Shown in pieces: positions 6,396-60,533 of a stretch of DNA of 64,000 nucleotides. Below the pieces are notes generated by a model. It saw nothing but the letters and a program-made list of their open reading frames with translations, was not told the DNA's origin and did not search any database. Made by a program: the position numbers and the translations under genes. Position 1 is the stretch's first letter. Each line of letters begins with the position of its first letter. Source of the stretch: Verrucomicrobiales bacterium (GTDB lineage Bacteria > Verrucomicrobiota > Verrucomicrobiia > Limisphaerales > JACDHS01); contig JAQGOU010000115.1 of assembly GCA_028293445.1 (NCBI GenBank), forward strand, positions 4,129 to 68,128, in the 5' to 3' direction.

Positions 6396-7805
6396 ATGGC
6401 ACGCGAAATTATAGGAACCCACCAGAAAGCATTCCAGATCAACCTTGATCCGGCCAAGTACGGCACCTTTGCCGAAATCGGCGCCGGACAGGAAGTGGCG
6501 CGTTGGTTTTTTCGCGTTGGCGCGGCTGCCGGAACGATTGCCAAAACTATTTCGGCCTATGACATGACGATCAGCGATGCGATTTACGGTCGCGCGGATC
6601 GTTACGTCAGCAAACAACGCCTCGAAATGATGTTGGATCACGAATATCCCTTGTTGCTGGAGCGGCTTGAGGAAAAGCGTGGCGCAACGACGAAGTTTTT
6701 CGTGTTTGCGGATACGGTCGTGGCACGGAGCTATTCGCGTCAGGACGATGCCCACGGATGGCTCGGAATTCGTTTTCAAACGGAACCCACATTGCCGCCG
6801 TCTCAAATCATCGTGCACGTGCGCCTCTGGGACAAAGAGAACGTCCAGGAACAGGAAGCGCTCGGCATTCTCGGCGTCAACCTGGTGCATGGCGCCATGT
6901 ATTTGCACGACAATCCCGAAACGCTGCTGGCGTCACTGGTAGATAACGTCAGCAAAGACCGGATCGAAGTGGACATGATCCAGTTTAGCGGGCCGGCTTT
7001 TACGAAAGTGGATAATCGGTTGATGGCGCTGAAGCTCGTCCAGCATGGCTTGACCAACGCCGCTCTGTTCACCGCGGACGGACAGGTGGTTTCGCCCGCG
7101 GATGCGTTCTATAAGAAATGCATTCTCGTCGAGCGCGGGAGCTTCCGTCCGATCACCAATGTCACGCTGGATATGCTCCGCTGCGCGCAGGCGCAATTCA
7201 TCCAGGAACCAAAGGTCCACGGCGAAGAGGTCATGACCATCATGGAAATGACTTTGAAGAATCTGGCGGATGAAGGGAACGTAATTGATCCGCAGGACTT
7301 TCTGGATCGTGTCGATATCCTGGGCAAACTTGGAAAGGCGGTTTTGATTTCCGACTTCTTCGAATACTTTCGGCTGGCGCAATATTTCTTCCGTTACACA
7401 AAGAACATGCACGGCATGGTCATGGGTGTGCCAAGTCTGCGGGAGATTTTTGACGAGAAATATTACGCGAATCTGGCCGGTGGAATTCTTGAGTCATTCG
7501 GGCGCATGTTTAAGAATGACTTGAAGCTTTACGTCTACCCGCTGCTTGATGCACGAACGGGATCGCTGATCACAGCGACGAACCTTCACGTCGCGCCGCA
7601 TCTGCGGCATTTGCATGCTTACCTGGTGGAGAATCGTTTCATCGAAGGCATTCGTGACTACAATCAGCAATGCCTGCCTATTTTCTCACGCGATGTTTTA
7701 CAGAAAATTCGTAGCCAAGATAAAACGTGGGAAGAGATGGTGCCACCGCAAGTTGCGAAGATGATTCGGGAACGAAACCTCTTTGGATGCAAAGGGTCCT
7801 GTTAA
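6396..7805 (+). CDS. Conserved hypothetical cytoplasmic protein
   Basis: 469 aa uninterrupted ORF with a strongly conserved-looking N-terminus (KYGTFAEIGAGQEVARWFF...GTIAKTISAYDM). I recognise it as a widespread uncharacterised family but cannot name it. Confidence 0.75.
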   Translation: MAREIIGTHQKAFQINLDPAKYGTFAEIGAGQEVARWFFRVGAAAGTIAKTISAYDMTISDAIYGRADRYVSKQRLEMMLDHEYPLLLERLEEKRGATTKFFVFADTVVARSYSRQDDAHGWLGIRFQTEPTLPPSQIIVHVRLWDKENVQEQEALGILGVNLVHGAMYLHDNPETLLASLVDNVSKDRIEVDMIQFSGPAFTKVDNRLMALKLVQHGLTNAALFTADGQVVSPADAFYKKCILVERGSFRPITNVTLDMLRCAQAQFIQEPKVHGEEVMTIMEMTLKNLADEGNVIDPQDFLDRVDILGKLGKAVLISDFFEYFRLAQYFFRYTKNMHGMVMGVPSLREIFDEKYYANLAGGILESFGRMFKNDLKLYVYPLLDARTGSLITATNLHVAPHLRHLHAYLVENRFIEGIRDYNQQCLPIFSRDVLQKIRSQDKTWEEMVPPQVAKMIRERNLFGCKGSC

Positions 7806-7936: not shown

Positions 7937-8563
7937 TTATTTCTCAGGGACGGACTGCAGTTCATCCGCTGTCCATGAAGATTTGTGGGACTCCGTTTCG
8001 TCGCGAATCTTTTTCACGTCGGCAGGCTTGACCGCTGAAGCTTTGTTACCCCAATCCTTGTTACCACGGACAAAAGTAATGACGGCGGCGATGTCCTCAT
8101 CGGTATAGGTATCGCGCCAGGGCGGCATCGCTGCAGCCCCGTATTCAGCGTCTTTAACTTTGACTGGCCCCACCAAGCCGCTCAGGACAATCCGAATCAT
8201 GCGCTCGGGACTAGCAGCCAGAACCCATTCCGATCCTGCGAGAGGAGGATTTTGACCTACAACACCAGTTCCATTCGCTTGATGGCAGGGCAAACAAGCC
8301 ACGCTGTAAATCTGTTGTCCTTTTCGCGCCAATTTGCCGCCTTCGTCTACGGGCTGGATGGCAACAACCTGATCGTACGAATGATAGGGCGCATAGACTT
8401 TGTGGTTAAAGCCGCCGCCGTGTTGGTCAATAAACAGACCTGCTGCAAAAATCCCGGCCGCCAAAAGAAAAAAGAAAATCACCGGAGCCGGCGCATCATT
8501 CACCTGCGGCGGAGCATCATCCCCACGAACAGTTTGTTTGGAATGTTTCGCGTCGGAGTTCAT
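7937..8563 (-). CDS. Membrane-anchored monoheme cytochrome c (CcoP-like / class I)
   Basis: 208 aa. One TM (VIFFFLLAAGIFAAGLF), CLPCHQ heme site, PPLAGSEWV and AAMPPW motifs. It has a 4-nt start/stop overlap with the upstream ccoO-like gene. Confidence 0.85.
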   Translation of the reverse strand: MNSDAKHSKQTVRGDDAPPQVNDAPAPVIFFFLLAAGIFAAGLFIDQHGGGFNHKVYAPYHSYDQVVAIQPVDEGGKLARKGQQIYSVACLPCHQANGTGVVGQNPPLAGSEWVLAASPERMIRIVLSGLVGPVKVKDAEYGAAAMPPWRDTYTDEDIAAVITFVRGNKDWGNKASAVKPADVKKIRDETESHKSSWTADELQSVPEK

Positions 8564-9249
8564 TTCGCTGGAGAATTGGTATTCGCCGCGGCGTTGGTGG
8601 CTGGCGCGTTGGTGGTGGCTGAATCAGGCACAGCGTTGGTTTTCGGCGACTGAGGCAAGGGCGCTTCAAACAATGGGGCCTCGGCATGCAGGCTGAACAA
8701 ATAACTTACCAGCTGATAGGCAGCAGGTGTCGCAATGATCTCGGTATTCGCGTCCACCAGAACTCTGTCCGGAGAAGGTGGTTGTCCTTCTTTCATTGGG
8801 CGCTTGGTAAACAGGAACGGATACTTCGGCATCGGAGACTTTTCCGATCCCGGCAGGGCGCGAGGATTATAAAGATGTTTCAGTTGCCAGTTCATATCTG
8901 GCTGACGCAACCCGATATTCTTCAGATCAGGACCGATCCGTTGCGAACCAAGCATTACCGGATTTTCATAAAGATAATCCTGAGCAACACTGATGCGGAC
9001 ACCCAAACCTGCGGTAACGTCGTTCGGGCGCACGACCTGAGTGTGACAGGAAGCGCAACCGAGAGAGCGGTAAAGTTGTTCGCCCTGATTTGCCTGCCCC
9101 GCGTGAGCGGACGGATATCTTTGGCCGGTCGTTTCAATCTGCACAACCTCTTGAGATCCGATCTGAAGCTGTGGCGCAAAGATCATTCCCAACCACGAAC
9201 ACGCGAACGTAATAAAAACGCCAAGGAAAAGGAGGGGACCATAGTTCAT
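8560..9249 (-). CDS. ccoO: cbb3-type oxidase subunit II-like monoheme cytochrome c (CcoO/FixO family)
   Basis: 229 aa. N-terminal TM, GCASCHTQVVRP, GSQRIGPDLKNIG, HLYNPRALPGSEKSPMPKYPFL. This matches the CcoO signature GCxxCHSQxxRP...GPDL...HLYNPR...MPxY. Confidence 0.85.
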   Translation of the reverse strand: MNYGPLLFLGVFITFACSWLGMIFAPQLQIGSQEVVQIETTGQRYPSAHAGQANQGEQLYRSLGCASCHTQVVRPNDVTAGLGVRISVAQDYLYENPVMLGSQRIGPDLKNIGLRQPDMNWQLKHLYNPRALPGSEKSPMPKYPFLFTKRPMKEGQPPSPDRVLVDANTEIIATPAAYQLVSYLFSLHAEAPLFEAPLPQSPKTNAVPDSATTNAPATNAAANTNSPAK

Positions 9250-10658
9250 CGCTTACCTCCTTTGTCACTACATTGGCAGCATTTACGGCATGTGGCGCGC
9301 AGCATACAACCCAGGTTCATGAGCAAAGCCAGGTTTCCGATGGCAATCAAGAGAAGGCCGAGTGTGCTCGGGCGTAAAAACTTTAAGGCGACAAGAAAAC
9401 CACTACCGCCGGCGTTCATCGATTGACCTTGTTTCACGCCGCCCAGGCCAAGGGCTACCACTAAGATGATGAGTCCAATTGCCACGAGCCAATAATGCAT
9501 ATTCGCCAGCGCGGGACGGGGCCATTCCATCAAGGTCAAGCGCGGCGCGATGTAATAAATCGCACCGAAAAAGGCCATCGCGATAAATCCATATAGCCAG
9601 AGATTCGAAATGGCGCCCGTAAAGATTGTAAATTCTGTGACATCATTGACGAGAGGAAGCGAATTGCCAGCCGTCAAAAGTCCCGCGATTAACAAACTGA
9701 TCATGGCGAAAACCATGAACCGCAGGGTGATATTTCCTTTTACGGAATTATTGGCGAGCGTCAAACGCCAGTTCACAACAAGCGCCAAAATGGGAATCAG
9801 TAACAGAAGTCGTGCGGCGGCGCTCACGGCCGGCAGCCAACTCGGTAACGGAACACCTGCTGGAATACCACACCAGCCACCGAAAAAGATAAAGGTCCAG
9901 AACGCAAACAACGCGAGATAGTAACTATGCAACGGTTGGCCAGAAATTTTCGGGATGAAATAGAAGACGGTGGCGATCGCAACGGAGGCCAGCCAGAGAA
10001 AGAGAAAGTTTCCGATGAACCAATAGTCCACGACGGACTGCATCACACCACGAACGGGGTGAATCAAAAGAAGCAGATTCGCCGTGGTCAATGTCCAGGG
10101 CAAAATGAAGAGCGCTGCCATCAAAAACCATTGGGAGACGTAGGTCGTCCGCTTAACGCGCGCGTGATAAGTCGCCACGGCAACAATGCCGATCAGGATG
10201 AAGGCGACAACAAAGAGCGGTGCCGCATAACGTGGAACTTCAAACCAGTCAAAGCCAGTGCTGTCACCGGCAAGAATTCCCACAATGCCAATCGCCAGGG
10301 CGAGGTTCCAGAAAACCGCACCGATGGTTGCCGCTGAGGCGTTGACCAATCGAACACGACCCAATTGACAGGTCAGCCAGAGCACAAGTCCAATGGCCAC
10401 TTCAGAAGCAAAGCCGTAGAGAAAGATGTCTGTTTGCGCCGCTTGAAGCCGGCCATAGGTCAGCAAGGGACATTCGGCCAACATCGCAGGCGCGTGCAGC
10501 TTAATGGAGGCGACCAAGGCCACGAGCGAGCCGAGGATCAGCCAAAGAGTCGCAGAGAAAAACAAGAACAGCACAGGACCGCGACACGAAGCGTCGATAT
10601 CAGCGCTGGAATATTTTACGGCGCTGGCGTCGGTTGGATTTGCGGACACTGACGTCAT
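9246..10658 (-). CDS. CcoN-like (heme-copper oxidase subunit I, C-family fold) protein lacking the canonical His ligands
   Basis: 470 aa polytopic membrane protein with CcoN-type motifs (YGRLQ, KRTTYVSQWF, FYFIPK, LRFMV, MHYWLVAIG). The six ligand histidines appear substituted (see finding). Confidence 0.8.
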   Translation of the reverse strand: MTSVSANPTDASAVKYSSADIDASCRGPVLFLFFSATLWLILGSLVALVASIKLHAPAMLAECPLLTYGRLQAAQTDIFLYGFASEVAIGLVLWLTCQLGRVRLVNASAATIGAVFWNLALAIGIVGILAGDSTGFDWFEVPRYAAPLFVVAFILIGIVAVATYHARVKRTTYVSQWFLMAALFILPWTLTTANLLLLIHPVRGVMQSVVDYWFIGNFLFLWLASVAIATVFYFIPKISGQPLHSYYLALFAFWTFIFFGGWCGIPAGVPLPSWLPAVSAAARLLLLIPILALVVNWRLTLANNSVKGNITLRFMVFAMISLLIAGLLTAGNSLPLVNDVTEFTIFTGAISNLWLYGFIAMAFFGAIYYIAPRLTLMEWPRPALANMHYWLVAIGLIILVVALGLGGVKQGQSMNAGGSGFLVALKFLRPSTLGLLLIAIGNLALLMNLGCMLRATCRKCCQCSDKGGKR

Positions 10659-10679: not shown

Positions 10680-11057
10680 TTATTCAAACTGGCTCGGTTT
10701 CTCCGGCGGTTTCGGCGGAACGAACGTAGCTTTTTCGACCCGGGCGATCAAATTGGAGCGACCGGCTTTCGGTTCTTTCCATTCCTCAATCAGCGCAGCC
10801 TTCGCTTGCTCAATGGGGAGACGACCGAGCTTTTTCGCGGCATCGAGAACACCAGCGTTGTTGAGGGCGTCAGCATTCGCTGCTTGCAGGTCAGATAAAT
10901 TCTTACGACGCAGCGCAATACGGTCTTCGCCAAGCGGGGCTGGCGTGGTCTTTTCGATCATGAACCATACCAACAATCCAACGACGATAAAAGATCCTAC
11001 GATACCGATTGCGTAGGCGGCTTTCTGTTTGCACGAACAATTGCTTTCGTTGCTCAT
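10680..11057 (-). CDS. Small single-pass membrane protein, ACIII/oxidase-associated, unknown function
   Basis: 125 aa. TM AYAIGIVGSFIVVGLLVWFMI. Sits in the operon between actF and the CcoN-like gene. Confidence 0.6.
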   Translation of the reverse strand: MSNESNCSCKQKAAYAIGIVGSFIVVGLLVWFMIEKTTPAPLGEDRIALRRKNLSDLQAANADALNNAGVLDAAKKLGRLPIEQAKAALIEEWKEPKAGRSNLIARVEKATFVPPKPPEKPSQFE

Positions 11058-11097: not shown

Positions 11098-12378
11098 TTA
11101 TTTTGCGTGACCGGGAGCGGTCGCTATATCGGATGGCGCAACGTACATATCGAGACCTTCGGCGAGGCGAGGATCGCGAATCGGATAAGGCGCATGCGCG
11201 CGGAAGTTGCGGAGCCAGACCAAAGCGAGCAAGCCAACCATGAATGCGAGGCACGCGAGATCCAGAGCAACGCTACCGGCTGTGATGCCGTTCGGATGCG
11301 GAGTCGGTCCAATATTAAATTCCAGATCGACGAAATGCATGATCCACGCCCAGACAAAGAGCGGCACCATGACCGGCAACGTGAGTTTGGCATCGATGCG
11401 GAGCAGCGAAAGGAACGGGAGAAAGAAATGGCCGAAGATCAGCAACATGCCGAGATCCCAGAAATTTCCTTTTTCGCGGACGGCATACCAGAAGGTTTCT
11501 TCCGGCATGTTGGCGTTCCAGATAATGAAATACTGCGAGAAAGTGACGTAAGCGTAAAAAACGGTGAACGCAAAGATCAACGATCCGATGAAGTAAAACT
11601 GTTTTTGCTTCAACACTTCACGAAGCTGTCCATTTTGCCGTTTCAGGATTGCCGCGACCAAATATACGGTGGCCAACGTCATCCACACACTGCCCGCAAA
11701 GTAATAGACCGGATACATCGTCGAGAACCATTCGTGCATCAACGCTTTCATCCACATGATCGCTCCCAACGTCAGCGTGACGGCAAAGACGAAGATTCCG
11801 AGGCTCGCGTAGAACCGCATTTTGAGGGTGCATTCGGCAGCGCCGGTTTCATCCTGCTTCAGTGACCATGCCTTCAAGCCACGTGCAAAAATAAACCACA
11901 TGACAAAGTTGAAAGCTGCCACGCCGAAAAAGCCCGCGACCGTAAAGAGGGGTTGCTTGGCTTGCAACGCATGATCATGTCCCGCTGCGGCTGGATTGGT
12001 TAGGAGCTCGTTCATCCAGGGATACAAACTCGGGAGATGCAAACCAATCGCCGGAGCCATCGCATAAATTCCAATCGGGATAAAAAGGAAAGGCAACACT
12101 TGATACGTCATCGCGCCCAAATGTTCATTGATACGACGGATCGGAACCGACCAGCTGGCATCGAAAAGATGGTGAATCAGCGTCAGAAAAAATCCGCCCA
12201 TGCAGAGGCTCACCGCGAACATGAAGGCGAGAAGCCATGAATAACCAAATTGCTTTGGATCGACAGCGAGCCCGATCAACGCGCCAATGCCACCGAGCAC
12301 CATCAGAACAATGGGCAGGTTTTTCCAGCGCGATAGATCAAGCGGCACAAATTTCTCTGATTCACCGTGCGAACTCAT
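11098..12378 (-). CDS. actF: Alternative Complex III subunit ActF (NrfD-like membrane subunit)
   Basis: 426 aa polytopic membrane protein at the ActF position after ActE in the conserved actABCDEF order. Confidence 0.75.
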   Translation of the reverse strand: MSSHGESEKFVPLDLSRWKNLPIVLMVLGGIGALIGLAVDPKQFGYSWLLAFMFAVSLCMGGFFLTLIHHLFDASWSVPIRRINEHLGAMTYQVLPFLFIPIGIYAMAPAIGLHLPSLYPWMNELLTNPAAAGHDHALQAKQPLFTVAGFFGVAAFNFVMWFIFARGLKAWSLKQDETGAAECTLKMRFYASLGIFVFAVTLTLGAIMWMKALMHEWFSTMYPVYYFAGSVWMTLATVYLVAAILKRQNGQLREVLKQKQFYFIGSLIFAFTVFYAYVTFSQYFIIWNANMPEETFWYAVREKGNFWDLGMLLIFGHFFLPFLSLLRIDAKLTLPVMVPLFVWAWIMHFVDLEFNIGPTPHPNGITAGSVALDLACLAFMVGLLALVWLRNFRAHAPYPIRDPRLAEGLDMYVAPSDIATAPGHAK

Positions 12379-12380
12379 AG

Positions 12381-13007
12381 CTATTTTTTGAAATTGGACT
12401 GCACACTCGCCGGCAATTCATCGCCGAATGCCAAACGACTGCGTTGCAACGCACGAACGTAAGCAACAATCTTCCAGCGATCTTCGACAGATACTAATCC
12501 GCCGTAGGCTCCCATTAGATTCTTACCATGGGTGATGGTGTTAAAAATGTCACCATCCGCCAGCATCACCAGACGTTTGTCATGGAAATTCGCCATCGCG
12601 ACCATGCCATATTTTCCCGTGATACCTTTGCCATCGCCGACAGCGCCGTGACAGGGTGAACAGCTGATATTATAACGCTCTTGACCGCGGTTCAGCATCG
12701 TAATGTCTATCGGAAGCGGATTGGTTTCGACCCAATTCGTCGTGCCGGTTTCGCGACCGGTGTTGAGCACGTTCTCTTCAAAGTTTGAACCACGGGCAAT
12801 GCTTCCGGCTGGATGCCGTTGCGAGCTCAGGTTCTCCGGGAGCATTGGATTGAACGTTTGCGGACGAAGCTTCGGCTGGCGATCCATGTCCGGAAACAAT
12901 TCAATCGGCGGTTTGCGCGACATGCTGCCGCGTTTTCCAGCAATGACTGTGACCGTGATGACGATCAGCACCAGGGGAACCAGGAAATATTTTACAAAGG
13001 CTCTCAT
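12381..13007 (-). CDS. actE: Alternative Complex III subunit ActE (monoheme cytochrome c)
   Basis: 208 aa. N-terminal TM/lipobox-like region, single CSPCHG heme motif. Position follows ActD. Confidence 0.8.
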   Translation of the reverse strand: MRAFVKYFLVPLVLIVITVTVIAGKRGSMSRKPPIELFPDMDRQPKLRPQTFNPMLPENLSSQRHPAGSIARGSNFEENVLNTGRETGTTNWVETNPLPIDITMLNRGQERYNISCSPCHGAVGDGKGITGKYGMVAMANFHDKRLVMLADGDIFNTITHGKNLMGAYGGLVSVEDRWKIVAYVRALQRSRLAFGDELPASVQSNFKK

Positions 13008-13546
13008 TATTCCTCCACAATCTCGATGCGCTTGCTGCCGGTCGATTCAAGCAACTTGCGGGTTTCGGTTTCGGAATATTTCGGATCAGTTGTTTCGATC
13101 ACGAGGAAAAACTTATCATGCGTCGCGAGCCGAAAGCGTCCGTGCTTAAGCAACGGATGGTGCAAGCGCGGAAGCCGATTCAAAAACAACATGCCAGCGA
13201 TCGCTCCGAAAGAACCCAATAGAATCGTGAGTTCATACGACGGCGGGAAAGCGCCAAATGGACTGAACATCGGTTTACCGCCAACGACGATTGGATAATC
13301 GACTGCGTTCATCCACCAGATCATCACCATGCCCAATGTATAACCGGTCACACCCCCGACGAATGAGAACCAACCAACCTTGGAATTCTTAAGTCCCATG
13401 GCGTTATCCATTCCATGAATCGGAAATGGCGTAAACACATCCCAGTTAAGAAAACCGGAATCTCGAATTTTCTCCGCGGCGTGCATCACGTCAGCGGGCG
13501 TGTCAAATTCAGCAATGACACCGTATGGACGAGGAGTAGCACTCAT
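13007..13546 (-). CDS. actD: Alternative Complex III subunit ActD (DUF3341)
   Basis: 179 aa. YGVIAEFDTPADVMHAAEKIRDSGF followed by two TM helices is the typical ActD/DUF3341 pattern. Its stop/start shares 1 nt with each neighbour. Confidence 0.8.
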   Translation of the reverse strand: MSATPRPYGVIAEFDTPADVMHAAEKIRDSGFLNWDVFTPFPIHGMDNAMGLKNSKVGWFSFVGGVTGYTLGMVMIWWMNAVDYPIVVGGKPMFSPFGAFPPSYELTILLGSFGAIAGMLFLNRLPRLHHPLLKHGRFRLATHDKFFLVIETTDPKYSETETRKLLESTGSKRIEIVEE

Positions 13547-14961
13547 TAGTGATGTCCTCCTTTTGCGCCACCCAGCGGGTGATGCGGATCCGCTTGAGGC
13601 GTGACCCCTTTCACTTCACTGATTGCGATTACGGGCAGGAATCTCAGGAACAAAAGGAACAACGTAAAGAACAGGCCGAACGTTCCCATGTAAGTGGCGA
13701 TGTCCACCCATGTCGGACGGAAATATCCCCAGTTCGCGGGAATGAAATCGCGATACAAAGATGTGACTACGATTTCAAAACGTTCAAACCACATACCAAT
13801 GTTTACAAAGATCGAGAGTATCCAGACCAAAAGCAGATTGTGGCGGAACTTTTTAATCCAGAACAATTGTGGGAACACAACGTTGCAGGCGATCATCGTC
13901 CAGTAACCCCACCAGAAGGTTCCGAAAGCACGATTCATAAAGATGGTGCGCTCAAAAGGATTGCCGCCATACCAGGCGATAAAGAACTCCATACCGTAGG
14001 CATATCCGACGATGGAACCGGTCGCGAGCGTGACTTTGCACATCAAATCGATGTGGCGCATCGTGATCACATCTTCCAGTTTGCAAATTGTCCGCAAAGG
14101 AATCAGCAAGGTCAGCACCATGCCGAATCCGGAGAACACAGCGCCCGCCACGAAATACGGCGGGAAAATGGTCGTGTGCCAACCGGGCAACTGCGACACC
14201 GCGAAGTCCAGCGACACGATGGAGTGCACGGACAAGACTAGCGGTGTGGAGAGACCCGCTAAAATCAAATAGGCTTTTTCGTAGTTGCTCCAGTGGCGGT
14301 TTGATCCAGTCCAACCGAGCGAAAACAAACCATATGCAAATTTACGGATCTTGGTTTTCGCACGATCACGCATGACCGCGAGGTCAGGAACCAGTCCGAT
14401 ATACCAGAACAACGCCGAAACCGTAAAATAGGTCGAGACCGCGAACACGTCCCACATCAGCGGTGAACGGAACTGCGGCCAGATACTATTCGAGTTTGGC
14501 AGCGGGAAGAGCCAATAACCAAACCAAACACGACCGATGTGAACGACCGGAAAAATACCGGCGCACATGACCGCGAAGATTGTCATCGCTTCGGCCGCAC
14601 GATTCACCGCCGTGCGCCATTTCTGACGCAACAAAAATAGAATCGCTGAAATCAGCGTCCCTGCGTGACCGATACCGATCCACCACACGAAGTTAATAAT
14701 CGCCCAACCCCACATGACTGGATGACCAGGTCCCCAAACACCAACGCCCGTGCTGACCAGGTACGCCAACATAACGAACAGCATGGTCGCTAACAGAATG
14801 CTCGGAATAAAAGCAAGCCACCACCACATGGGCGTCTTGCCTTCAGCGATTTGCGCAATCTGATCGGATATCCATCCGATGGAGCGATTGTTTTGGACCA
14901 GCGGAATGCGTTCCAAAGACCTCGGCGGCGGCGCCAACTTAAGATTGGTTTGCTCAGCCAT
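13546..14961 (-). CDS. actC: Alternative Complex III subunit ActC (NrfD/PsrC-type quinol-interacting membrane subunit)
   Basis: 471 aa, about 10 TM, NrfD-like. The TAATG junction shares 1 nt with the end of actB. Confidence 0.85.
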
Positions 14962-15554
14962 TAGTGCGCTCCTTTCTCTGCATGCTCAGAAGTCGTATGG
15001 CCCGGGTGTTTTTCGCCCGCTTCGTGCCCCTCAAATGGGTTCTCATTGTGCTGGTCGAGGTATTCTCTAAGGCTGCCCGGATCTTCGCTGAATTGATCCT
15101 GGATAGCGGGATTCGGATTGCGAATTTTCGCCAGATAGGTCAACCGCGGTTTGGTCGCGAGGAATTCCAGGACTGCGTAATCGCGTTGTTGCTGCTTCAG
15201 CTTCGAGACGCGGCTGTTAGGATCTTTCAGGTTACCGAAAACAATCGCTTCCGTCGGGCAAGCTTGTGCGCAAGCCGTAGTAAACGCGCCATCCGGCACT
15301 TCGATATCTGCTGAAGCGCGGGCTTTAACCTTTTGCGCGATCTTCGCCTGCTCGATACGCTGGACGCAAAACGTGCATTTCTCCATGACGCCGCGCATCC
15401 GGACGCTGACGTCCGGATTCTTGGCGAGCTTGAGCAATTCCCATTCGTCGTCTGGACGATAGGAAACGTCCGGGTTTTTCGCCCAGCGGGCAATATCCCA
15501 TTCACCTTCGGTGCTATGCAGCAAAGGCGTCTGGTAAACCGGCTGTTTCAACAT
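14961..15554 (-). CDS. actB: ActB C-terminal fragment (4Fe-4S ferredoxin-like part), separated from the N-terminal part by an in-frame TAA
   Basis: ORF of 197 aa ([11 protein letters not shown]..., [16 protein letters not shown]). The 31 codons upstream (15555-15647) are in the same frame and read [31 protein letters not shown], a conserved Fe-S cluster motif. Confidence 0.8.
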
Positions 15555-15647
15555 GTCCAGCGGACGCTTGTTGTAATCGAAATAGTTAAAGCGACGAACC
15601 TTATATGGGCAGTTGTTCGAGCAGTATCTTGTCCCGACACAACTGTT

Positions 15648-18401
15648 TTAGACCATGACGTTCAGGCCTTCCTGATCGTGCACGGTTGCGTTCACCGGAC
15701 AGACGCTTTCGCACGGAGCTTTTTCGCAATGCTGGCAAAGCATCGGCTGGGTGATCATCTGCGGATCAGCCATGTTGGCCTCGAGCAAAGCTTCGCGATC
15801 TTTGTCGGCATTCCACGGAGCGCTGTCTTTTTTCCAAGGCAAACCACTGGTGAAATAACGGTCGATACGGATCCAGTGCATTTCGCGATTGTTGCGAACC
15901 TGGTCCTTCCCAACGATCGGAATATTATTTTCGCTCTGGCAAGCCACCATACAAGCGGAGCAACCAACGCAGTTGCTCAGATCGATGGACATTCCCCACG
16001 CATGAACAGCGACGTCGTTGGCTTTGTCCAACGGATTGGGATACATGCGGCCATCCGGATTTTCATGCGGCATGAGCGACGGCTCTTCCATCTGCATCGC
16101 CTTTGCGAAATCCGGTTTTTTACGAAACTGTTCGAGATTGGCTTCGCGAATAATCGGGCGACCTTCCATGGCCCAATGATCCTGCGTCGTTGCCAGCGGA
16201 TGCATCGCGTCCGTTTTGAGCACCTTCGCGCCAGAGGCAATATAAATTCCGTGAGTAGTTCTCAGCAGGTAAGCGTTATAACCGGTGCCTTTGCCAATGC
16301 GACCGCTGCGCGTGCGACCGTAGCCGAGGGCAAGTCCGAGCGTAAAATCAGCCATGCCAGGCTGAATCCAAATAGGCCCTTCTATTTCGCGGCCATCTAC
16401 CTGCACTTTGATCACTGGCACCTGAAGGTTGTTGTTCTCTTTGTTCTCAACCTTTAGTCCGAGCGCCTTTGCCGTCTTGTAGCTCATCAAAATGACATTT
16501 TCCCATGTCAACTTGGTGATCGGATCCGGCAATTCCTGCAACCAGCCATTATTATTATAACGGCCATCATCCACCTTGGAGTCGCGATGGAAAACTACTT
16601 CCAGGGCGTTCGCAGTGGGCGGCAGATCCAGCACAATTTTGCTGAGTGCCTGTGAAATCTTTTCCTTCTCGAACTCGGGCGCGGCGGAACGTCCGGCTGT
16701 TCCATTGATGAAGCCGTCGTGCAGGAACCTCTTCCACATTTCTTCGGAAGCAGTGTCCTTCGCTTTACCTGGGAAAATTTGCTCGTGAAACGTTTCGCGA
16801 ACGATTTCGTAAGCGCTCGTCGGGGTCAGGCCGCCGATGCGCGCCAAAAATTCCAATTCACGAACGCCATTGAACAACGGTTCAATCAAAGGCTGAACCG
16901 CAGTCAGGGTACCATCCCCCGTGCGAACGTCGCCCCACGATTCCAAATAGTGCGCCATTGGAAAATGCCACGTGCTCACGGTCGCCGTTTCATCTTCGTA
17001 GTAGCCGAGGCGAATAACATTTTTCGCTTTCTTACAAGCGTTGGCAAAATCGAGTTCTACCGGCGCATTATAAACTGGGTTCCCACCAATGATTACGAGC
17101 GTATCGACCCGGCCATCATGGAGACGTTGCGCCAGTTTCTGGAGCGTTCCTTCTTCCTGCTTCGGCGCCGAATACAACATCACGGTCGAACCAAAGTTTC
17201 CTAGCATTTGATTGATCAAATGCGACATGACATGCACCACTTGCGGCTGACGATACCCCGCGCAAACCACGCATTTTTTGCCGTGTTGCACCAGGTCCTT
17301 CACGCATTCCGCAATCCACTTCTCTTCTTTCTCTGTGAATTTGTAGGAGCGGTGAATTTCTGTAAAATCTGCGATCTGCTTTCCACCAACCGCGCGTTGC
17401 ACTTCGGTGGCCACGCGGGCTGCGACGGCAATGATCTGACTGGTCGCGACACCCAGCCGGTGATCTGCCGCTGCGCCGGTCAAGGTGAAGAGACCCTCAA
17501 CAACATAAAGACGATTCATGTTGTCTTCCGCTTTTTCGATCCGACGGCCTTTGCTAAAGCCGCGCATCAAACGGAAGCTCTCCTGTTCAGATCCAATGAA
17601 ATCGCAGTCGAGCGACAAAATGCGCTCGGCTTGTTCGAGATGATATTCTACCTTGTAACTGTCCCGATAAAACAACGATGAAGCAGCTTCATCCGCCACG
17701 CTCAAATCCACCGGCTCGTAAGAGAACCAACGAACTTGTTTATACTTTTCCGCGATGATCTTTTGCAGCCGTAGCCGGGAGGGCGAACTGCTCTGTTCCA
17801 TCAGGAAATAAATGCCGTCGCCTTCATTTTGCGAGGCTTTCTTCGCAAATTCGGCCAGATAATCCAAGGCCACTTCGCGCTGAACATCTTTGCCTTCCTT
17901 GGCAAAACGCATCGCACGATCCGGATCATAAAGGTTCAGCACCGACGCTTGTGTGAAAGTATCCGTTCCGCCGTGCTTAAAGCCGGCGTGCTCCGGAGCT
18001 TCGTTGCTCTGATAGGCCGGATGATCCGCGTTTCCTTCAATCTTCGTCGGACGACCATCGCTCGACTTTACCAAAACCGGCACTGCGCTACCGCGCGTTG
18101 GCCGCGCCGAGGCAAAGTATTCAGGAACCCCGTGGGTGTAACCTTGCGGCTGCTTGGAAAACGGAAGGATTTTTTCTTCCGGCCGACGGCATCCAGTCAA
18201 ACCAACCCCCGCCAAGAGCGCAGAGGCCGACATTAACTTAACGAAATTACGGCGAGTAACAGGATCGCGCAGTTCGCTGGCGCCCTGAGGGAACTCGCGT
18301 TCCACCATCGCTTGAAACTCCGGCGTCTCGGCCAATTGGTCGATACTGCGCCAATATTTCTGGCCTTCTGGTTCCGGGCAAACTGGAGGAATGGTTTTCA
18401 T
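15648..18401 (-). CDS. actB: ActB N-terminal part (Tat signal, molybdopterin-oxidoreductase-like domain, first Fe-S motifs), ending at an in-frame TAA
   Basis: 917 aa. Twin-arginine signal TRRNFVKLMSASALLAG, MopB-like domain, CVGCSACMVACQSENN, CQHCEKAPCESVCP. Ends ...EGLNVMV* where homologs continue. Confidence 0.85.
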   Translation of the reverse strand: MKTIPPVCPEPEGQKYWRSIDQLAETPEFQAMVEREFPQGASELRDPVTRRNFVKLMSASALLAGVGLTGCRRPEEKILPFSKQPQGYTHGVPEYFASARPTRGSAVPVLVKSSDGRPTKIEGNADHPAYQSNEAPEHAGFKHGGTDTFTQASVLNLYDPDRAMRFAKEGKDVQREVALDYLAEFAKKASQNEGDGIYFLMEQSSSPSRLRLQKIIAEKYKQVRWFSYEPVDLSVADEAASSLFYRDSYKVEYHLEQAERILSLDCDFIGSEQESFRLMRGFSKGRRIEKAEDNMNRLYVVEGLFTLTGAAADHRLGVATSQIIAVAARVATEVQRAVGGKQIADFTEIHRSYKFTEKEEKWIAECVKDLVQHGKKCVVCAGYRQPQVVHVMSHLINQMLGNFGSTVMLYSAPKQEEGTLQKLAQRLHDGRVDTLVIIGGNPVYNAPVELDFANACKKAKNVIRLGYYEDETATVSTWHFPMAHYLESWGDVRTGDGTLTAVQPLIEPLFNGVRELEFLARIGGLTPTSAYEIVRETFHEQIFPGKAKDTASEEMWKRFLHDGFINGTAGRSAAPEFEKEKISQALSKIVLDLPPTANALEVVFHRDSKVDDGRYNNNGWLQELPDPITKLTWENVILMSYKTAKALGLKVENKENNNLQVPVIKVQVDGREIEGPIWIQPGMADFTLGLALGYGRTRSGRIGKGTGYNAYLLRTTHGIYIASGAKVLKTDAMHPLATTQDHWAMEGRPIIREANLEQFRKKPDFAKAMQMEEPSLMPHENPDGRMYPNPLDKANDVAVHAWGMSIDLSNCVGCSACMVACQSENNIPIVGKDQVRNNREMHWIRIDRYFTSGLPWKKDSAPWNADKDREALLEANMADPQMITQPMLCQHCEKAPCESVCPVNATVHDQEGLNVMV

Positions 18402-19078
18402 CGATGACAGGCAGAGCAGTTTTGCAAAGATTCAACGTGCCATTCTTTGACAAGCTCTTTGCCGTGATTCTTTTGGAAGTTTGGATCGCTCGGCTTCCAG
18501 TCGAGATCGGTAATCTTGTCGAGGTCGCGAATGTTCGCGGCAGGGTTGCGATGGCAATCCAGACAAAAAGTCATCGTCAACGGCTTTTCCTGGCGCACTT
18601 CGTCCAGGTGATTGACGTTGCCATGGCATTTCACGCAACTGACGCCGCGGTTCACGTGCACGGAGTGATTGAAATAGACGTAATCCGGAACTTTATGCAC
18701 CTGAATCCAGGGAATCGGCTTCCCACTCAGCGCACTTTCCCGAACCAAGGCCAATTTCGGGTCATCCTTCAAAACCTGCGAATGGCAATTCATACAGGTC
18801 GAAGCGGACGGAATATTCGAATACCACGATTTTTCCACCGCACTATGGCAGTAACGGCAGTCAACGCCGAGTTGGCCTGCGTGAATTTCGTGGGAGAAAG
18901 CAACCGGCTGGATCGGCTGGTAACCGACGTTCGCATAAGCGGGCGTCAAATAATACCAGGCACCCGCCACAACGGCGCTGCCGAGCAGCAACGCGCCAAC
19001 CGCCACCTGCAGCGGCAGGTGGTTGGTCCACTTTGGAAAAATGTCTGACATTTGGTGTTCAGAGACCGGCACACGCAA
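18398..19078 (-). CDS. actA: Alternative Complex III subunit ActA (pentaheme cytochrome c)
   Basis: 226 aa. N-terminal TM plus five CxxCH motifs (CRYCH, CMNCH, CVKCH, CLDCH, CSACH). 4-nt overlap with actB. Confidence 0.9.
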   Translation of the reverse strand: MRVPVSEHQMSDIFPKWTNHLPLQVAVGALLLGSAVVAGAWYYLTPAYANVGYQPIQPVAFSHEIHAGQLGVDCRYCHSAVEKSWYSNIPSASTCMNCHSQVLKDDPKLALVRESALSGKPIPWIQVHKVPDYVYFNHSVHVNRGVSCVKCHGNVNHLDEVRQEKPLTMTFCLDCHRNPAANIRDLDKITDLDWKPSDPNFQKNHGKELVKEWHVESLQNCSACHR

Positions 19079-54192: not shown

Positions 54193-57100
54193 TTAATCGG
54201 CATAAACAAATTCGTTCGCACACAGTAGCGTCTGGCAATACTCCAGCCAGGCCGTTTCCACCGGTTGCTTTTCCTTGTGCGCCATCTCCAATACTGCCCG
54301 GCCAATCTTAACTTCTTCCCCCACTGGCAGCCGTCCATAGAGCATCTGATACAGCCACTCGATTTTCTTCCCGTCATTCAATTTGCCAAACTTCGTCACC
54401 CGACCCGCCAACGCCTTGGCCTGTGCGATTACGAAGGGATGATTCAGCAGGAACAACGCCTGCGGTGCGACGGTGGAAACCACCCGTGATTCCACAATCG
54501 CCGTTGAGTCAGCCCCATCGAACATCGCCCGATAATTACTGCGATCGGAGCGGATGGTCATGAGATACAACGTGCGTCGATCGTTGTTCAAATCACGGAT
54601 GGCCGCTCCACCCAGACTGCGATCAAGACGGCCCGCCGCCGCCAATAAACTGTCGCGCAACGATTCCGCATCGAGACGCTGGCGCGGCATTCGGCCGAGT
54701 AATTTGTTTTCCGGATCCGTATTCAAGGTCGCGCGTTCCGGCACCGAAGACTGCTGATAAACCGCCGAAAGAAGGATCGAGCGATGCATGGCCTTGATAG
54801 ACCAACCGGATTCCACAAAGCGGCGCGCCAGATAATCGAGCAACTCAGGATGCGTCGGCGGCGTGCCGAGTTTCCCGTAGTTGTTCGGCGTTCGCACGAT
54901 GCCTTCGCCGAAGTGGTGTTGCCAAATGCGATTCATCATCACACGCGCCGTGAGTGGATTCGCGGGACTGCCGAGCCATTTCGCCAATTGCAACCGTCCG
55001 CTCCCCTCGGTGAATGGTGTTTGGTGATCCCCAGCAATGATGCGCGGGAATCCTCGCGGCACCAATTCGCCCAATCGATCGTATCGCCCGCGCACATGAA
55101 TTTTCACATCATGCACGCCAGCGTGAGGGCTTTCCGGAACGCCCCCTTCCTGCAAACCGTGCGCCATCAGAAGCGCTGCTGGCGGATGACTTCGCAGGTC
55201 GCTCAGCTCGGCCTTATCCTTTTGCAAAGTATTCTTCGCCTCAGCGGTAAACAATTTTTCCTCGTTCCGCAACGGCGCCCAAAAGGAACCGCGCGGAACA
55301 GCGAACGCCATGTAAACCCCGTTCGTCACGGTCGTATCCAAAACCTCCTTCTGCATCTGCGCGGCAACGCGTTTAACCTCTGCCAGATCGACACGGTTCG
55401 ATCCCTTTGCCATTTCCAGCCAGCGACCCACCCCGGATTCTGCCGATGCCGTCAGGCTTTTCACGGCCAGATCACGGAAGCGCCAAATATCCGCGTTGCC
55501 GAATCGATCCGAATGAGGGTTCCCGGAATGGAGATCGCTCGCCACGTCTTGATTAATATCCCAAACACGTTTCTGTCCCTCCGCTTCCACGACTTCCAAC
55601 TCGATCATCGTCGTATCGCATTCGTAAGCGCCCTTGGGAAAGATATTCAATTGCACGTAATCTCCCGCTTGAACCTGACACGAAATGGCGGACTCCTTGC
55701 CCGCAAGTTGTTCCATGCCGCCGCTCGGAATCGATCCCTTCGCCAATGGCGTTTCCTTGGGACCAGATAGTTTAACCAGGCTCCACTCAATGCCATCGCC
55801 GCAATTGGGATCTATATCTACCACTCGACCTTTGATGTGCACCGCCCCGGTCACGGGACTTTTCCAGGCCGCCGCGACCCCATCCTTGGGCGATGGATGC
55901 ATACTGATATGATGGGCCGGCAGTTTGATCGTGGCATAGACAATCTCCTGGTCCGTGCTGTTCGCCACCACCGACGGGTTCTCAGCACCACTGGCCATGC
56001 GCCAGACATTGAGCCCTTGAATGTTGAGTAGATTGCGAAGCGGTTGCGACAAGAGCCCGAGGTTTTCAGATCCAAGAAAGCTGATCCAGCGGCGCAAAAC
56101 CGGTTCCGCCAGGTTTTGTGATTCCGCGAGCGCACTGAGGGACTTGCTGGAATCCGTTTGATATTCCCACGCCGCCATTAGATAGCGTTCGGTCTCAGTT
56201 TTCGCGCGCGTCGCGACAGCCGCAATTTGCTCATCCTGAGTTTTCTCAATCTGTTTTTCCAACTCCGCGATGCGCGCTTCACGCTGTTTGCGTTGTTCCA
56301 TTTCCGTTTTCGAAGCCAGAGGAATCCGCAACAACGCCTCACCCGCTCCTTTTGCGGTCAGCTTAGGAATGATGTGGCTGCTGAAGAAAATTCCCGCGAG
56401 CGAATAATAATCTGCCGTGGGAATGGGATCGAATTTGTGATCGTGACAACGCGCGCAGGCCAACGTCAGCCCGAGAAAAGCTCGACCCGTCACGTCCACG
56501 GCATCATCCGCGATGTCGGTGAGAATCTTCTCCTTATCCGCGTCGCCATTGCCCCAATTGCCGACCGCATACATGCCGGTGGCGATAATGGCGTTGGTAT
56601 CGATGCCGTCCGGCTGTGGTGATGGCAACAGATCACCAGCAACTTGCTCAGTAATAAACCGGTCGTAAGGCAGATCGCGATTGAAAGCATTCACCACCCA
56701 ATCGCGATAACGCCACGCGTCAATAATATCCTGCTCCGTTCCGACAATTCGGCTATCAAGAGAATCGGTGTAACGCACGACATCCAGCCAATGCCGCGCC
56801 CAACGTTCGCCGTAATGCGGCGATGCCAGCAAACGATCCACGACTTTCGCGAAAGCACCAAGTGACTTGTCGTTGAGAAATGCATCGATCTCTTCCGGCG
56901 TGGGTGGCAAGCCAATGAGATCAAACGTGACCCGACGCAAGAGCGTGCGCTTTTCCGCAGGCTTGGCCGGTGACAATCCTTTCTCTTCCAGTTTCGCGAG
57001 AACGAATTGATCGATCGGCGACTTCACCCATCCCCTTCGTTTCACCTTCGGACGCGGCGGATCTTGCGGTGGAGAAAAGGCCCACAGTTTTTGTGCCGCT

Positions 57101-57531
57101 TCAAAGTCATAAGCCGGTTTTTGCGGAGTCGCAGCCACAGTCGCTGATTCCGTTCGTGGATCAGGTGCGCCCATTTTTACCCACGTGATTAAATCGGCGA
57201 TCTGCGCCTCCGAAAGCTTTTGGTCCTTCGGCGGCATCTGCAAATCTTTATCCGTGTAGCGCACGGCTTTGATCAACAGGCTTTCTTCCGGTTTGCCGGG
57301 CACAATCACCGCGCCGGATTCGCCGCCCTTGAGCATTCCTGCTTTACTGTCGAGCCGCAGCTTGCCTTTCAGTTTCTCCGCCTCCGCGCTGTGACATTTA
57401 TAACAATGCTCGACCAATACAGGACGGATCTTCGTTTCAAAAAAGCTGAAGTCTTCTTCTGCTCGCCCCAGCGAAAACCAAAACAAAGTTGGTACAACCA
57501 GTAGCGATAAATATTTTTGGCGCAGAAACAT
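54193..57531 (-). CDS. PSCyt1/PSCyt2(DUF1549)/PSD1(DUF1553) multidomain protein
   Basis: 1112 aa. Signal peptide and the N-terminal planctomycete-type cytochrome c motif CYKCHSAEAEKLKGKLRLD. DUF1549-like RRVTFDLIGLPPTPEE, CARCHDHKFDPI, and a DUF1553 C-terminus (CANEFVY). Confidence 0.9.
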   Translation of the reverse strand: MFLRQKYLSLLVVPTLFWFSLGRAEEDFSFFETKIRPVLVEHCYKCHSAEAEKLKGKLRLDSKAGMLKGGESGAVIVPGKPEESLLIKAVRYTDKDLQMPPKDQKLSEAQIADLITWVKMGAPDPRTESATVAATPQKPAYDFEAAQKLWAFSPPQDPPRPKVKRRGWVKSPIDQFVLAKLEEKGLSPAKPAEKRTLLRRVTFDLIGLPPTPEEIDAFLNDKSLGAFAKVVDRLLASPHYGERWARHWLDVVRYTDSLDSRIVGTEQDIIDAWRYRDWVVNAFNRDLPYDRFITEQVAGDLLPSPQPDGIDTNAIIATGMYAVGNWGNGDADKEKILTDIADDAVDVTGRAFLGLTLACARCHDHKFDPIPTADYYSLAGIFFSSHIIPKLTAKGAGEALLRIPLASKTEMEQRKQREARIAELEKQIEKTQDEQIAAVATRAKTETERYLMAAWEYQTDSSKSLSALAESQNLAEPVLRRWISFLGSENLGLLSQPLRNLLNIQGLNVWRMASGAENPSVVANSTDQEIVYATIKLPAHHISMHPSPKDGVAAAWKSPVTGAVHIKGRVVDIDPNCGDGIEWSLVKLSGPKETPLAKGSIPSGGMEQLAGKESAISCQVQAGDYVQLNIFPKGAYECDTTMIELEVVEAEGQKRVWDINQDVASDLHSGNPHSDRFGNADIWRFRDLAVKSLTASAESGVGRWLEMAKGSNRVDLAEVKRVAAQMQKEVLDTTVTNGVYMAFAVPRGSFWAPLRNEEKLFTAEAKNTLQKDKAELSDLRSHPPAALLMAHGLQEGGVPESPHAGVHDVKIHVRGRYDRLGELVPRGFPRIIAGDHQTPFTEGSGRLQLAKWLGSPANPLTARVMMNRIWQHHFGEGIVRTPNNYGKLGTPPTHPELLDYLARRFVESGWSIKAMHRSILLSAVYQQSSVPERATLNTDPENKLLGRMPRQRLDAESLRDSLLAAAGRLDRSLGGAAIRDLNNDRRTLYLMTIRSDRSNYRAMFDGADSTAIVESRVVSTVAPQALFLLNHPFVIAQAKALAGRVTKFGKLNDGKKIEWLYQMLYGRLPVGEEVKIGRAVLEMAHKEKQPVETAWLEYCQTLLCANEFVYAD

Positions 57532-60138: not shown

Positions 60139-60295
60139 GAAATCACGTGCAGGTCGAAAGATTAAAAGGAGAGCGACATGCAATAGGAGACCCATTCGCC
60201 GCGCTTTCGTTCGATCTAAACTGGGAGGCGAGAAACGGACGGATCTTGCTTTCAAAAAACGCGAAGTTCTCCGCCGCCCCGCTTGTCTGTTTGAA

Positions 60296-60363
60296 CCCCG
60301 CCGCGTGAGGGCACGCGGCCTACACCGTGCTTTTTGTAGGCCGACTGCCCTCAGTCGGCGGGG
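60296..60363. repeat. Nested three-helix GC-rich hairpin (REP-like or small structured RNA)
   Basis: ccccgccg..gagggca..ggcctaca-[loop]-tgtaggcc..tgccctc..cggcgggg. Three nested perfect helices of 8, 7 and 8 bp, with no trailing T-run. Confidence 0.6.
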
Positions 60364-60533
60364 CGGTGCTATCAAGATGCGCCCTTGCAAAAGGTCCCGC
60401 GCAAAACATTCTTGCCTCTTTTGCTGTCTGCACGGCATAAACGCGCCGAATATTTGGCATCTTACTACATCCTCGGAGAGGATCGGTTTGGGGGGCCACG
60501 GCATTAACGCATCATCAGCACACAACGCATCGC

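Follow-up and report, generated by a model that had tools for sequence, protein, structure and literature searches.

A CcoN homologue lacking the canonical haem and copper ligands in an Alternative Complex III operon of Verrucomicrobiota

The DNA discussed here is a stretch of 64,000 nucleotides from a Verrucomicrobiales bacterium (contig JAQGOU010000115.1 of assembly GCA_028293445.1, positions 4,129 to 68,128), hereafter called the window, and it carries a ten-gene operon on the minus strand in the order ActA-ActB-ActC-ActD-ActE-ActF-125-aa protein-CcoN'-CcoO'-cytochrome c (Table 1). The operon has the features of Alternative Complex III (ACIII), i.e., the order actABCDEF, a penta-haem ActA, NrfD-type ActC and ActF, an ActD, and a mono-haem ActE. 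The subject of this work is the eighth gene, ccoN', whose product is related to subunit I (CcoN) of the cbb3-type, or C-family, haem-copper oxidases (HCOs), and in which all six histidines expected to hold haem b, haem b3, and CuB have been replaced. In the following, His+ denotes an ACIII-type CcoN with all of its ligands, His-less one that has lost most or all of them, and primes mark the products of His-less operons.

As far as sequence and predicted fold can tell, CcoN' is a clear homologue of CcoN. The Pfam family COX1 matches residues 29-414 (E=1.5e-40), and the closest solved structures found by phmmer are all cbb3 CcoN chains (8smr_E at 8e-26, 6xkw_n, 9g6b_A, and 3mk7_A), with an identity of ∼24% to the proteobacterial CcoN reference used here, 8smr_E. 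The AlphaFold2 model, built from 69 homologues, contains 12 long helices and has a mean predicted local distance difference test score (pLDDT) of 93 and a predicted template-modelling (TM) score of 0.93. When this model is compared by Foldseek, it superimposes on 9g6b_A, 8smr_E, and 3mk7_A with a TM-score of 0.87 and a root-mean-square deviation of 1.7-2.4 Å; nitric oxide reductases (NORs; 4xyd_A at 2e-11) and the A- and B-family oxidases rank below. An earlier note on this DNA, prepared from the letters alone, had recognized both the homology and a full-length reading frame of 470 residues. Both are borne out, and the frame is intact and begins with ATG, on a strand that the note had left unstated.

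What, then, has become of the metal sites? A pairwise HMMER alignment and three independent MAFFT alignments agree that the six ligand positions are occupied by Q75, G216, P266, A267, I350, and N352. In the numbering of Pseudomonas stutzeri, the two histidines of the low-spin haem b, H60 and H347, correspond to Q75 and N352 (A/Q/S/G/F and Q/N/K/L/W, respectively, across the family), and the proximal histidine of the high-spin haem b3, H345, corresponds to I350 (Q/L/R/V/K across the family). The three CuB histidines, H207, H257, and H258, are replaced by G216, P266, and A267, after which two residues are deleted. The tyrosine of helix VII that forms the His-Tyr cross-link, Y251, is G260. CcoN' contains five histidines in total (55, 165, 200, 244, and 388), and none of them stands at a ligand position.

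The ligand motifs align unambiguously because the residues that flank them are conserved. In the HMMER alignment to the Pseudomonas aeruginosa and Rhodobacter capsulatus proteins, the corresponding segments (canonical/CcoN') read GRLrplHtn/GRLqaaQtd, WWyGHN/yWfiGN, WaGPHH/WcGIP--, and TDWTiGHvHagalGW/TeFTiftgaIsNlwlyGF. Misalignment as the source of the apparent loss was considered and rejected, given the agreement of the four alignments and the fact that His+ relatives sharing 40-44% identity align with a histidine at every position. The CcoN' motifs on which the earlier note had built its case are all present, i.e., YGRLQAAQTD from residue 68, DYWFIGNF from 211, GGWCGIPAG from 260, and TEFTIFTGAISNLW from 341. 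Its alignment by eye was correct, and its claim that all six haem and CuB histidines are lost stands.

A site of the NOR type, with two haems and an FeB bound by His and Glu, is likewise missing, the same six positions being non-His. As judged from its sequence, CcoN' cannot bind the haems b and b3 or CuB by canonical ligation, and the tyrosine cofactor is missing too. With both gone, it would not reduce O2 or NO in the manner of any known HCO, and in all likelihood the protein is cofactor-less and no longer an oxidase.

The organization of the genes around ccoN' is compact. Its stop codon and the start of ccoO' overlap as ATGA, with a Shine-Dalgarno sequence (AAGGAGG) seven bases 5' of the ATG, and ccoO' in turn shares a 4-nt overlap with the cytochrome c gene. 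On the other side, ccoN' is separated from the gene for the 125-aa protein by a gap of 21 nt; hence, of the overlaps with both neighbours that the earlier note had described, only the downstream one exists. The note was right that the adjacent CcoO keeps its haem site, and CASCH, GPDL, and PMPKY are all found in this next open reading frame (ORF). A CcoN hidden Markov model run against the ORFs of at least 90 aa revealed no second HCO subunit I in the window, although A-family oxidases might escape this model. No gene for the copper-transporting ATPase CcoI lies next to the operon in the 64-kb window, and a scan for a terminator or promoter 3' of the last gene of the operon gave nothing.

Table 1. 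Genes of the ACIII-CcoN' operon, in the order of transcription, and three other ORFs of the window (positions are those of the window)
Feature	Position	Strand	Description
ActA	18398..19078	minus	First gene of operon; penta-haem cytochrome c, five CxxCH motifs
ActB	14961..18401	minus	B1 (molybdopterin-like) and B2 (Fe-S) domains; in-frame TAA at 15648-15650
ActC	13546..14961	minus	NrfD-type quinol-binding membrane subunit; Pfam NrfD 7e-21
ActD	13007..13546	minus	Pfam ActD 4.5e-65
ActE	12381..13007	minus	ACIII mono-haem cytochrome c; Pfam Cytochrome_CBB3 1.6e-12, one CxxCH
ActF	11098..12378	minus	426 aa; second NrfD-like ACIII membrane subunit, from operon position, BLASTP to ActC (E=2e-6), and conservation in 70+ loci
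Small membrane protein	10680..11057	minus	125 aa; one N-terminal transmembrane helix; between actF and ccoN'; no Pfam match
CcoN'	9246..10658	minus	470 aa, ATG start; subunit I homologue of cbb3 (C-family) type with 12 transmembrane helices
CcoO'	8560..9249	minus	229 aa; mono-haem c, FixO family (Pfam FixO 4e-22); CASCH and axial Met140 kept
Cytochrome c	7937..8563	minus	208 aa; membrane-anchored, mono-haem, CcoP-like single domain; last gene of operon; Pfam Cytochrom_C/Cytochrome_CBB3 ∼1e-13
ORF convergent with operon end	6396..7805	plus	469 aa; no Pfam match; also called in an independent Logan assembly
c-type cytochrome protein	54193..57531	minus	1112 aa; PSCyt1/PSCyt2/PSD1, typical of the PVC group
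DUF1573 + cytochrome c protein	59287..60597	minus	436 aa; two CxxCH

Is this loss a peculiarity of one genome or the property of a family? Protein databases speak for the latter. Among 5.8 billion proteins, a word-indexed search found 999 matches with E ≤ 1e-5, and the best 120 of them (41-75% identity) were aligned by MAFFT together with the canonical reference: 78 have no histidine at any of the six positions and 2 have all six. When 1.84 billion cluster representatives were searched exhaustively with phmmer, 327 reached E ≤ 1e-30. Among the best 150 of these, which represent distinct 50%-identity clusters, ∼135 lack most or all of the ligands, and 2 keep the six histidines and the tyrosine. 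The former ligand sites of these 150 representatives accept nearly every residue (N, G, H, and D are among those found at one such position of the His-less family), a hypervariability that is to be expected of sites that have fallen out of use. Some lineages have partial sets, such as AHHHQK, in which the three CuB histidines are kept, or QGHHRQ, and these fit a stepwise erosion after the enzyme stopped working.

The same question was addressed at the level of loci by scanning one genome per GTDB species and keeping the best 80 of 548 relatives with their 10-kb flanks (L001-L080). Thirty-five of these loci have the full ligand set (HHHHHH) and the tyrosine, and 45 have lost most or all of it, the window being an additional case; thus, His+ and His-less forms of the ACIII-linked CcoN coexist in Verrucomicrobiota. 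The loss of ligands noted in the window extends across the family, and its presence in many loci and clusters led us to reject private decay in one metagenome-assembled genome (MAG).

According to tblastn with the ten proteins of the window, the order ActABCDEF-(small)-CcoN-CcoO-cytochrome c is maintained in ∼75 of the 80 loci. The earlier note had asked whether the gene always follows an act operon, and the His-less gene does. The exceptions to the order are mostly truncated contigs, plus the stand-alone clusters of L030 and L034. The earlier note had also considered that a second, canonical ccoN might adjoin the same ccoO and make this copy irrelevant; none does, either in the loci examined or in the window.

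All 80 loci seem to belong to Verrucomicrobiota, namely, to Limisphaerales/Pedosphaera, Verrucomicrobiales, and Opitutales, apart from a few MAGs with implausible labels. In particular, ten loci that bear the operon (L004, L010, L019, L031, L033, L036, L055, L057, L061, and L071) are labelled as Haliangiales, Akkermansia muciniphila or Akkermansia sp., Omnitrophota, Bifidobacterium or Bifidobacteriaceae, and Methylomirabilota. The operons are of verrucomicrobial type, and the labels are probably a matter of mis-binning or mislabelling. As for the 125-aa protein, most loci of Limisphaerales type, both His+ and His-less, have it in this position according to tblastn; it was not detected by this method in the Opitutales loci, where a gap of similar size exists.

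The family is also represented in culture. The soil bacterium Pedosphaera parvula Ellin514 has a His-less CcoN (A, N, P, gap, Q, and Q at the six positions) within the same operon, annotated as 'cbb3-type cytochrome c oxidase subunit I'. In its draft genome (ABOX02000007.1; L082, 8308-9584), actF is called as two genes of 303 and 121 aa, which suggests a frameshift or a sequencing error.

The two stand-alone clusters mentioned above, L030 and L034, come from MAGs of Limisphaerales and consist of a canonical His+ ccoN followed by ccoO, a cytochrome c gene, and ccoI. No act genes lie upstream of them within the sequence available, which is 10 kb for L034 and ∼1.2 kb for L030. Such clusters therefore exist in Limisphaerales, and these genomes might also carry a His-less, ACIII-linked copy. 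A second, canonical ccoN was looked for in P. parvula with a stand-alone His+ CcoN of Limisphaerales as the query, and P. parvula was absent from the 120 best matches.

A protein that has lost its active site may be on its way to disappearing, but the His-less genes bear none of the marks of pseudogenes, such as stops or frameshifts, a ratio of nonsynonymous to synonymous substitution rates (dN/dS) near 1, or a sporadic distribution. Full-length ORFs without stops are found in 45 of the 45 His-less loci. By the method of Nei and Gojobori (NG86), 14 closely related His-less pairs have dN/dS values of 0.07-0.22 (median ∼0.15) and 11 His+ pairs have values of 0.017-0.107 (median ∼0.05). In the same genomes, ActF (0.05-0.24) and CcoO' (0.07-0.25) evolve within a range similar to that of CcoN', with the exception of a single CcoO' pair at 0.85 that derives from a truncated contig. 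The earlier note had argued against random decay from this one intact frame; the family confirms it, and ccoN' is very probably a functional gene.

Where this constraint falls was examined by comparing the columns of 35 His+ sequences with those of 46 His-less ones (the 45 loci and the window). As many as 62 columns are ≥90% identical in both groups; most of these are Gly, Pro, and Trp, and the polar residues among them include D22, S24, H55, R70, E140, R203, Q207, N217, and Q410. Conversely, 73 columns that are ≥90% conserved in His+ fall below 60% in His-less sequences. These include all of the ligands, adjacent small residues (G205 and G343 of the reference), and a number of His, Tyr, Arg, and Ser residues on the cytoplasmic side. 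The tyrosine of the cross-link is present in 35/35 His+ and 0/46 His-less sequences. Relaxed polar positions on the cytoplasmic side, a candidate proton path, are H165, T171, H244, Y246, W297, R298, N309, and R313 in the window. Another relaxed position is E116 of the reference (D137 in the window), which aligns with Glu122 of P. stutzeri, reported to be a Ca2+ ligand (Buschmann et al. 2010).

Only eight columns gained conservation in the His-less group, all of them by conservative exchanges (F>Y, V>L, Y>F, S>A, I>L, and S/A>G). The comparison of the 35 and 46 sequences brought out neither a new set of ligands nor a new cluster of polar residues, and with these eight gains alone a replacement active site is not visible. 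The mean identity is 48% within the His-less group and 40% between the two groups, with the His-less sequences spread over >130 distinct 50%-identity clusters.

One segment stands out at the N-terminus. The motif (E/Q)IDASCRxPV, on the cytoplasmic side (residues 21-29 of CcoN', window 10572-10598, minus strand), is invariant in all ACIII-linked CcoN, His+ and His-less alike, and nothing comparable exists in the proteobacterial reference. A lineage-specific contact, for instance with ACIII, is a candidate role for this motif.

The partners of CcoN' have kept their own cofactor ligands. In the His-less loci, C65, C68, and H69 of CcoO' are 95% conserved and M140 is 100% conserved, so that the haem c site (CxxCH plus Met) that marks the partner of a cbb3 oxidase is present. 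In the cytochrome c, C90, C93, H94, and M146 are 100% conserved in both types of loci. CcoO' is systematically longer in His-less loci, with a median of 295 aa and up to 335 aa, compared with a median of 233 aa in His+ loci; that of the window, with 229 aa, is of the short kind.

The situation is different for CcoI, an accessory trait that does not strictly define a cbb3 oxidase. When clusters with at least 4.5 kb of downstream sequence were counted, a CcoI-like P-type ATPase of 850-1080 aa (Pfam E1-E2_ATPase and Hydrolase) directly followed 7 of the 22 His+ clusters and none of the 25 His-less ones. The seven cases, in which the gene lies downstream of the cytochrome c gene, are L012, L021, L030, L034, L041, L044, and L048.

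How did the His-less form arise? In a neighbour-joining tree of CcoN rooted with Pseudomonas, all His-less sequences fall in one clade, recovered in 99 of 100 bootstraps, with branches about 2-fold longer than those of its sister, the clade of His+ ACIII-linked CcoN. The ancestral state of the ACIII-linked CcoN was clearly His+, and the ligands were lost within the class Verrucomicrobiae once or a few times (1-3 losses).

Taken together, these data favour, with some reservation, an explanation in which the His-less CcoN descends from a cbb3 subunit, has lost its cofactors and all catalytic activity, and is retained as a scaffold that holds c-type cytochromes at ACIII. The ancestor would have been the oxidase half of an ACIII-cbb3 'superoperon', ActABCDEF-x-CcoN-CcoO-cytochrome c, which many Verrucomicrobiota (Opitutales and part of Limisphaerales) still possess with every ligand in place. 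In one large lineage of Verrucomicrobiae, or possibly a few, CcoN would then have lost the haem b and b3 ligands, the CuB histidines, the tyrosine, and the polar residues of the proton pathway, while the 12-helix fold, CcoO', and the mono-haem cytochrome c would have stayed under purifying selection.

The resulting apo-CcoN' would no longer reduce O2 or NO. It may instead serve as the membrane platform on which the cytochrome c and CcoO' are held, probably against ACIII as in the ACIII-caa3 supercomplexes, and its removal would destabilize partners that still carry electrons. The chances that such a scaffold role is the actual reason for its retention, a reading that draws on synteny and conservation, appear evenly balanced. 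The whole would work as a quinol:cytochrome c electron-output module, that is, an ACIII with an extended c-haem output, rather than as a quinol oxidase, and electrons would leave from the c-haems towards another oxidase or reductase. More tentatively still, one may picture a 'fossil oxidase': an interdependent ACIII-cbb3 supercomplex that gave up O2 reduction and kept the apo-subunit as a platform, thereby changing from a menaquinol oxidase to an enzyme that reduces cytochrome c, or another acceptor, with menaquinol.

Several observations weigh against this explanation. That CcoN' is produced, free of cofactors, and in contact with ACIII is read from genes, and the same is true of the direction and destination of the electron flow that we infer. 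No candidate gene for the acceptor is linked to the operon, and two retained c-haems are left with no obvious electron sink. The columns conserved in both groups show a weak enrichment in periplasmic loops (19% against a background of 13%), a trend that was not used as evidence for the idea of a preserved docking surface for CcoO.

The trees disagree as well. Those of ActC and ActD recover the His-less split in 0 of 100 bootstraps, and that of ActF does so weakly (29/100); in the ActC tree, the early-branching His-less loci L007, L038, and L046 sit among His+ loci. Long-branch attraction could possibly inflate the single-origin signal of CcoN. A single origin was thus not adopted as settled, being supported by the tree of CcoN and not by those of ActC and ActD.

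The last of these observations concerns actB. In the window, this gene contains an in-frame TAA in place of the invariant Tyr of the Fe-S motif YNRC, followed, with one codon between, by a second change, Arg to Ser; 54 of 55 relatives have YNRC and a continuous ORF. The ActB of the window is consequently not intact with regard to its four Fe-S cluster motifs, and either the consensus of the MAG is wrong, or carries a variant, or ACIII has really been inactivated in the source organism and the local operon may be defective. A real nonsense mutation would truncate ActB ahead of three Fe-S motifs. An independent Logan assembly of the locus (SRR13312974) ends before actB. The earlier note, which had overlooked this codon, described the CcoN homologue as coupled to ACIII. 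The act operon does lie directly upstream, but because of the TAA the coupling is uncertain for the source genome.

Could CcoN' be explained otherwise? It might still be a redox enzyme, an O2 or NO reductase or something new, that binds haem or metal through non-His or migrated ligands. The fold is wholly intact in a model of very high confidence; some members have partial ligand sets, such as the AHHHQK pattern; H55 and H388 are nearly invariant; and residues are known to have migrated in HCOs, where the cross-linked Tyr of the C family has moved to another helix (cited in PMC11214002). However, His+ relatives conserve H55 and H388 just as well, and the two residues lie at the periplasmic end of helix 1 and the cytoplasmic end of helix 11, on opposite faces of the membrane, which makes it impossible for them to ligate a haem together. 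Moreover, the former ligand positions vary freely across the family, the eight columns that gained conservation introduce no His, Met, Cys, Lys, Tyr, Glu, or Asp, the Tyr cofactor is missing throughout the His-less group, and the copper ATPase is linked to His+ clusters only. Thus, an active enzyme is highly unlikely. Even less credible is the view that ccoN' is a functionless relic that decays slowly and has simply not been deleted yet. Its evolution ∼2-3 times faster than that of His+ orthologues, in both branch lengths and dN/dS, the many once-conserved positions that have relaxed, and the stop codon in the neighbouring actB of the window would suit this view. They have to be set against a dN/dS far below 1, stop-free ORFs in every His-less locus, 62 columns shared at ≥90% identity with His+ sequences, a mean identity of 48% in so diverse a group, and the maintenance of both the gene order and the coupled 4-nt junction.

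More serious, although still unlikely, is the possibility that CcoN' is kept for something other than holding CcoO' or the cytochrome c, be it as an assembly or stability factor of ACIII, as a passive conduit for protons or ions joined to the membrane arm of ACIII, or as an inactive isosubunit that down-regulates oxidase activity by competing with a catalytic CcoN whose gene lies elsewhere. The invariant (E/Q)IDASCRxPV motif, absent from proteobacterial CcoN, hints at a lineage-specific contact. The stand-alone His+ ccoNO-c-ccoI clusters of Limisphaerales imply that some genomes could hold both kinds of CcoN, and in Pseudomonas aeruginosa orphan CcoN isosubunits are known to swap into cbb3 complexes. 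On the other hand, the relaxation of the cytoplasmic-side polar residues in His-less sequences argues against a maintained proton path, and CcoN' is always accompanied by its own CcoO' and cytochrome c, to which it is tightly coupled.

What would it mean if the preferred explanation, a cofactor-less scaffold, were true? The members of the HCO superfamily are regarded as having invariant metal ligands, and ccoN is used as a marker for high-affinity, microaerobic respiration. The His-less proteins would be the first family of HCO subunit I without a redox cofactor, and a large, diverse clade that is under purifying selection without these ligands would be a clear-cut case, found in nature, of a respiratory pseudoenzyme. 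It would also be indirect evidence for an interdependent ACIII-cbb3 complex in Verrucomicrobiota.

The consequences for annotation are practical. PGAP, JGI, and Pfam all label the His-less CcoN as 'cbb3-type cytochrome c oxidase subunit I', and such oxidase calls are probably wrong. A check of the ligands would reclassify a large share of the verrucomicrobial 'cbb3' calls, and, if the His-less CcoN is indeed such a fossil, hundreds of them, from soil and freshwater Pedosphaerales/Limisphaerales and including P. parvula, would become false positives for high-affinity O2 respiration. Genome papers on Verrucomicrobia treat the cbb3 genes next to those of ACIII as what their annotation says (PMC8498564, PMC6688271, PMC7914226). 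An experimental route exists, since P. parvula Ellin514 is cultured and carries the operon.

The comparison with known systems places CcoN' more precisely. Canonical cbb3 CcoN (P. stutzeri 3MK7, P. aeruginosa 8SMR, and R. capsulatus 6XKW) has the same fold of 12 transmembrane helices and many of the same structural Gly, Pro, and Trp residues, and it likewise has a mono-haem CcoO as its partner, with another c-type cytochrome encoded downstream. Unlike it, CcoN' has lost the cross-linked Tyr and every ligand of CuB and of the haems b and b3, its candidate proton-path positions are relaxed, and no ccoI is linked to it; on this sequence-based reckoning, it cannot be filed as an oxidase.

The nearest relatives are the canonical cbb3 oxidases linked to ACIII in Opitutales, Methylacidiphilum, and some Limisphaerales, which share the operon architecture and the IDASCRxPV motif with CcoN' and form its sister or parent lineage in the trees. 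They differ in having HHHHHH and Tyr in 35 of 35 loci, in evolving ∼3 times more slowly, and, in some cases, in the presence of a CcoI-like ATPase. The ACIII-linked C-type oxidase of Verrucomicrobiota was noted by Refojo et al. 2010, to the extent that this work is cited in PMC8498564. ACIII genes followed by a C-type oxidase have been described in verrucomicrobial methanotrophs and Opitutaceae, where they were treated as cbb3 (PMC8498564, PMC6688271), and a study of Pedosphaeraceae MAGs counted 'cbb3-type subunits' among the oxygen-reductase genes (PMC7914226). In the full texts searched, which do not include subscription-only papers, no description of a ligand-less CcoN was found, in agreement with the earlier note, whose author knew of none.

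ACIII and an HCO are known to form one physical complex in Flavobacterium johnsoniae and Rhodothermus marinus, where the ACIII-caa3 supercomplex allows direct haem-to-haem transfer (Sun et al. 2018; Sousa et al. 2018, PMC5928083). There, as in the CcoN' locus, the act operon is followed by oxidase genes. The partner in that case, however, is an active oxidase of the A family, whereas CcoN' belongs to the C family, has no redox centre in its predicted form, and is associated with ACIII as far as the genes indicate.

Structural retention of a former enzyme is familiar from other respiratory complexes, as the core proteins of mitochondrial bc1 are inactive peptidase-like subunits, but, to our knowledge, retention after the loss of the cofactors has been unreported for an HCO subunit I. 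ACIII itself offers a precedent: its ActB1 is a homologue of molybdopterin proteins with 'no prosthetic groups', and its ActF has no quinol site (Sousa et al. 2018, PMC5928083). Like CcoN', ActB1 is a former catalytic protein that has lost its cofactor and is retained as a structural subunit.

Within the HCO superfamily, gNOR is described as the first family to replace even one active-site His (Murali et al. 2024, PMC11214002). Together with eNOR, sNOR, and nNOR (PMC11214002), it resembles CcoN' in having lost the Tyr cofactor and in being predicted not to reduce O2. These enzymes nevertheless keep both haems and at least two of the three metal-site histidines, whereas CcoN' has lost all six of its histidine ligands with nothing in their place. 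The CcoN' family is, in these terms, a pseudoenzyme member of the HCO superfamily.

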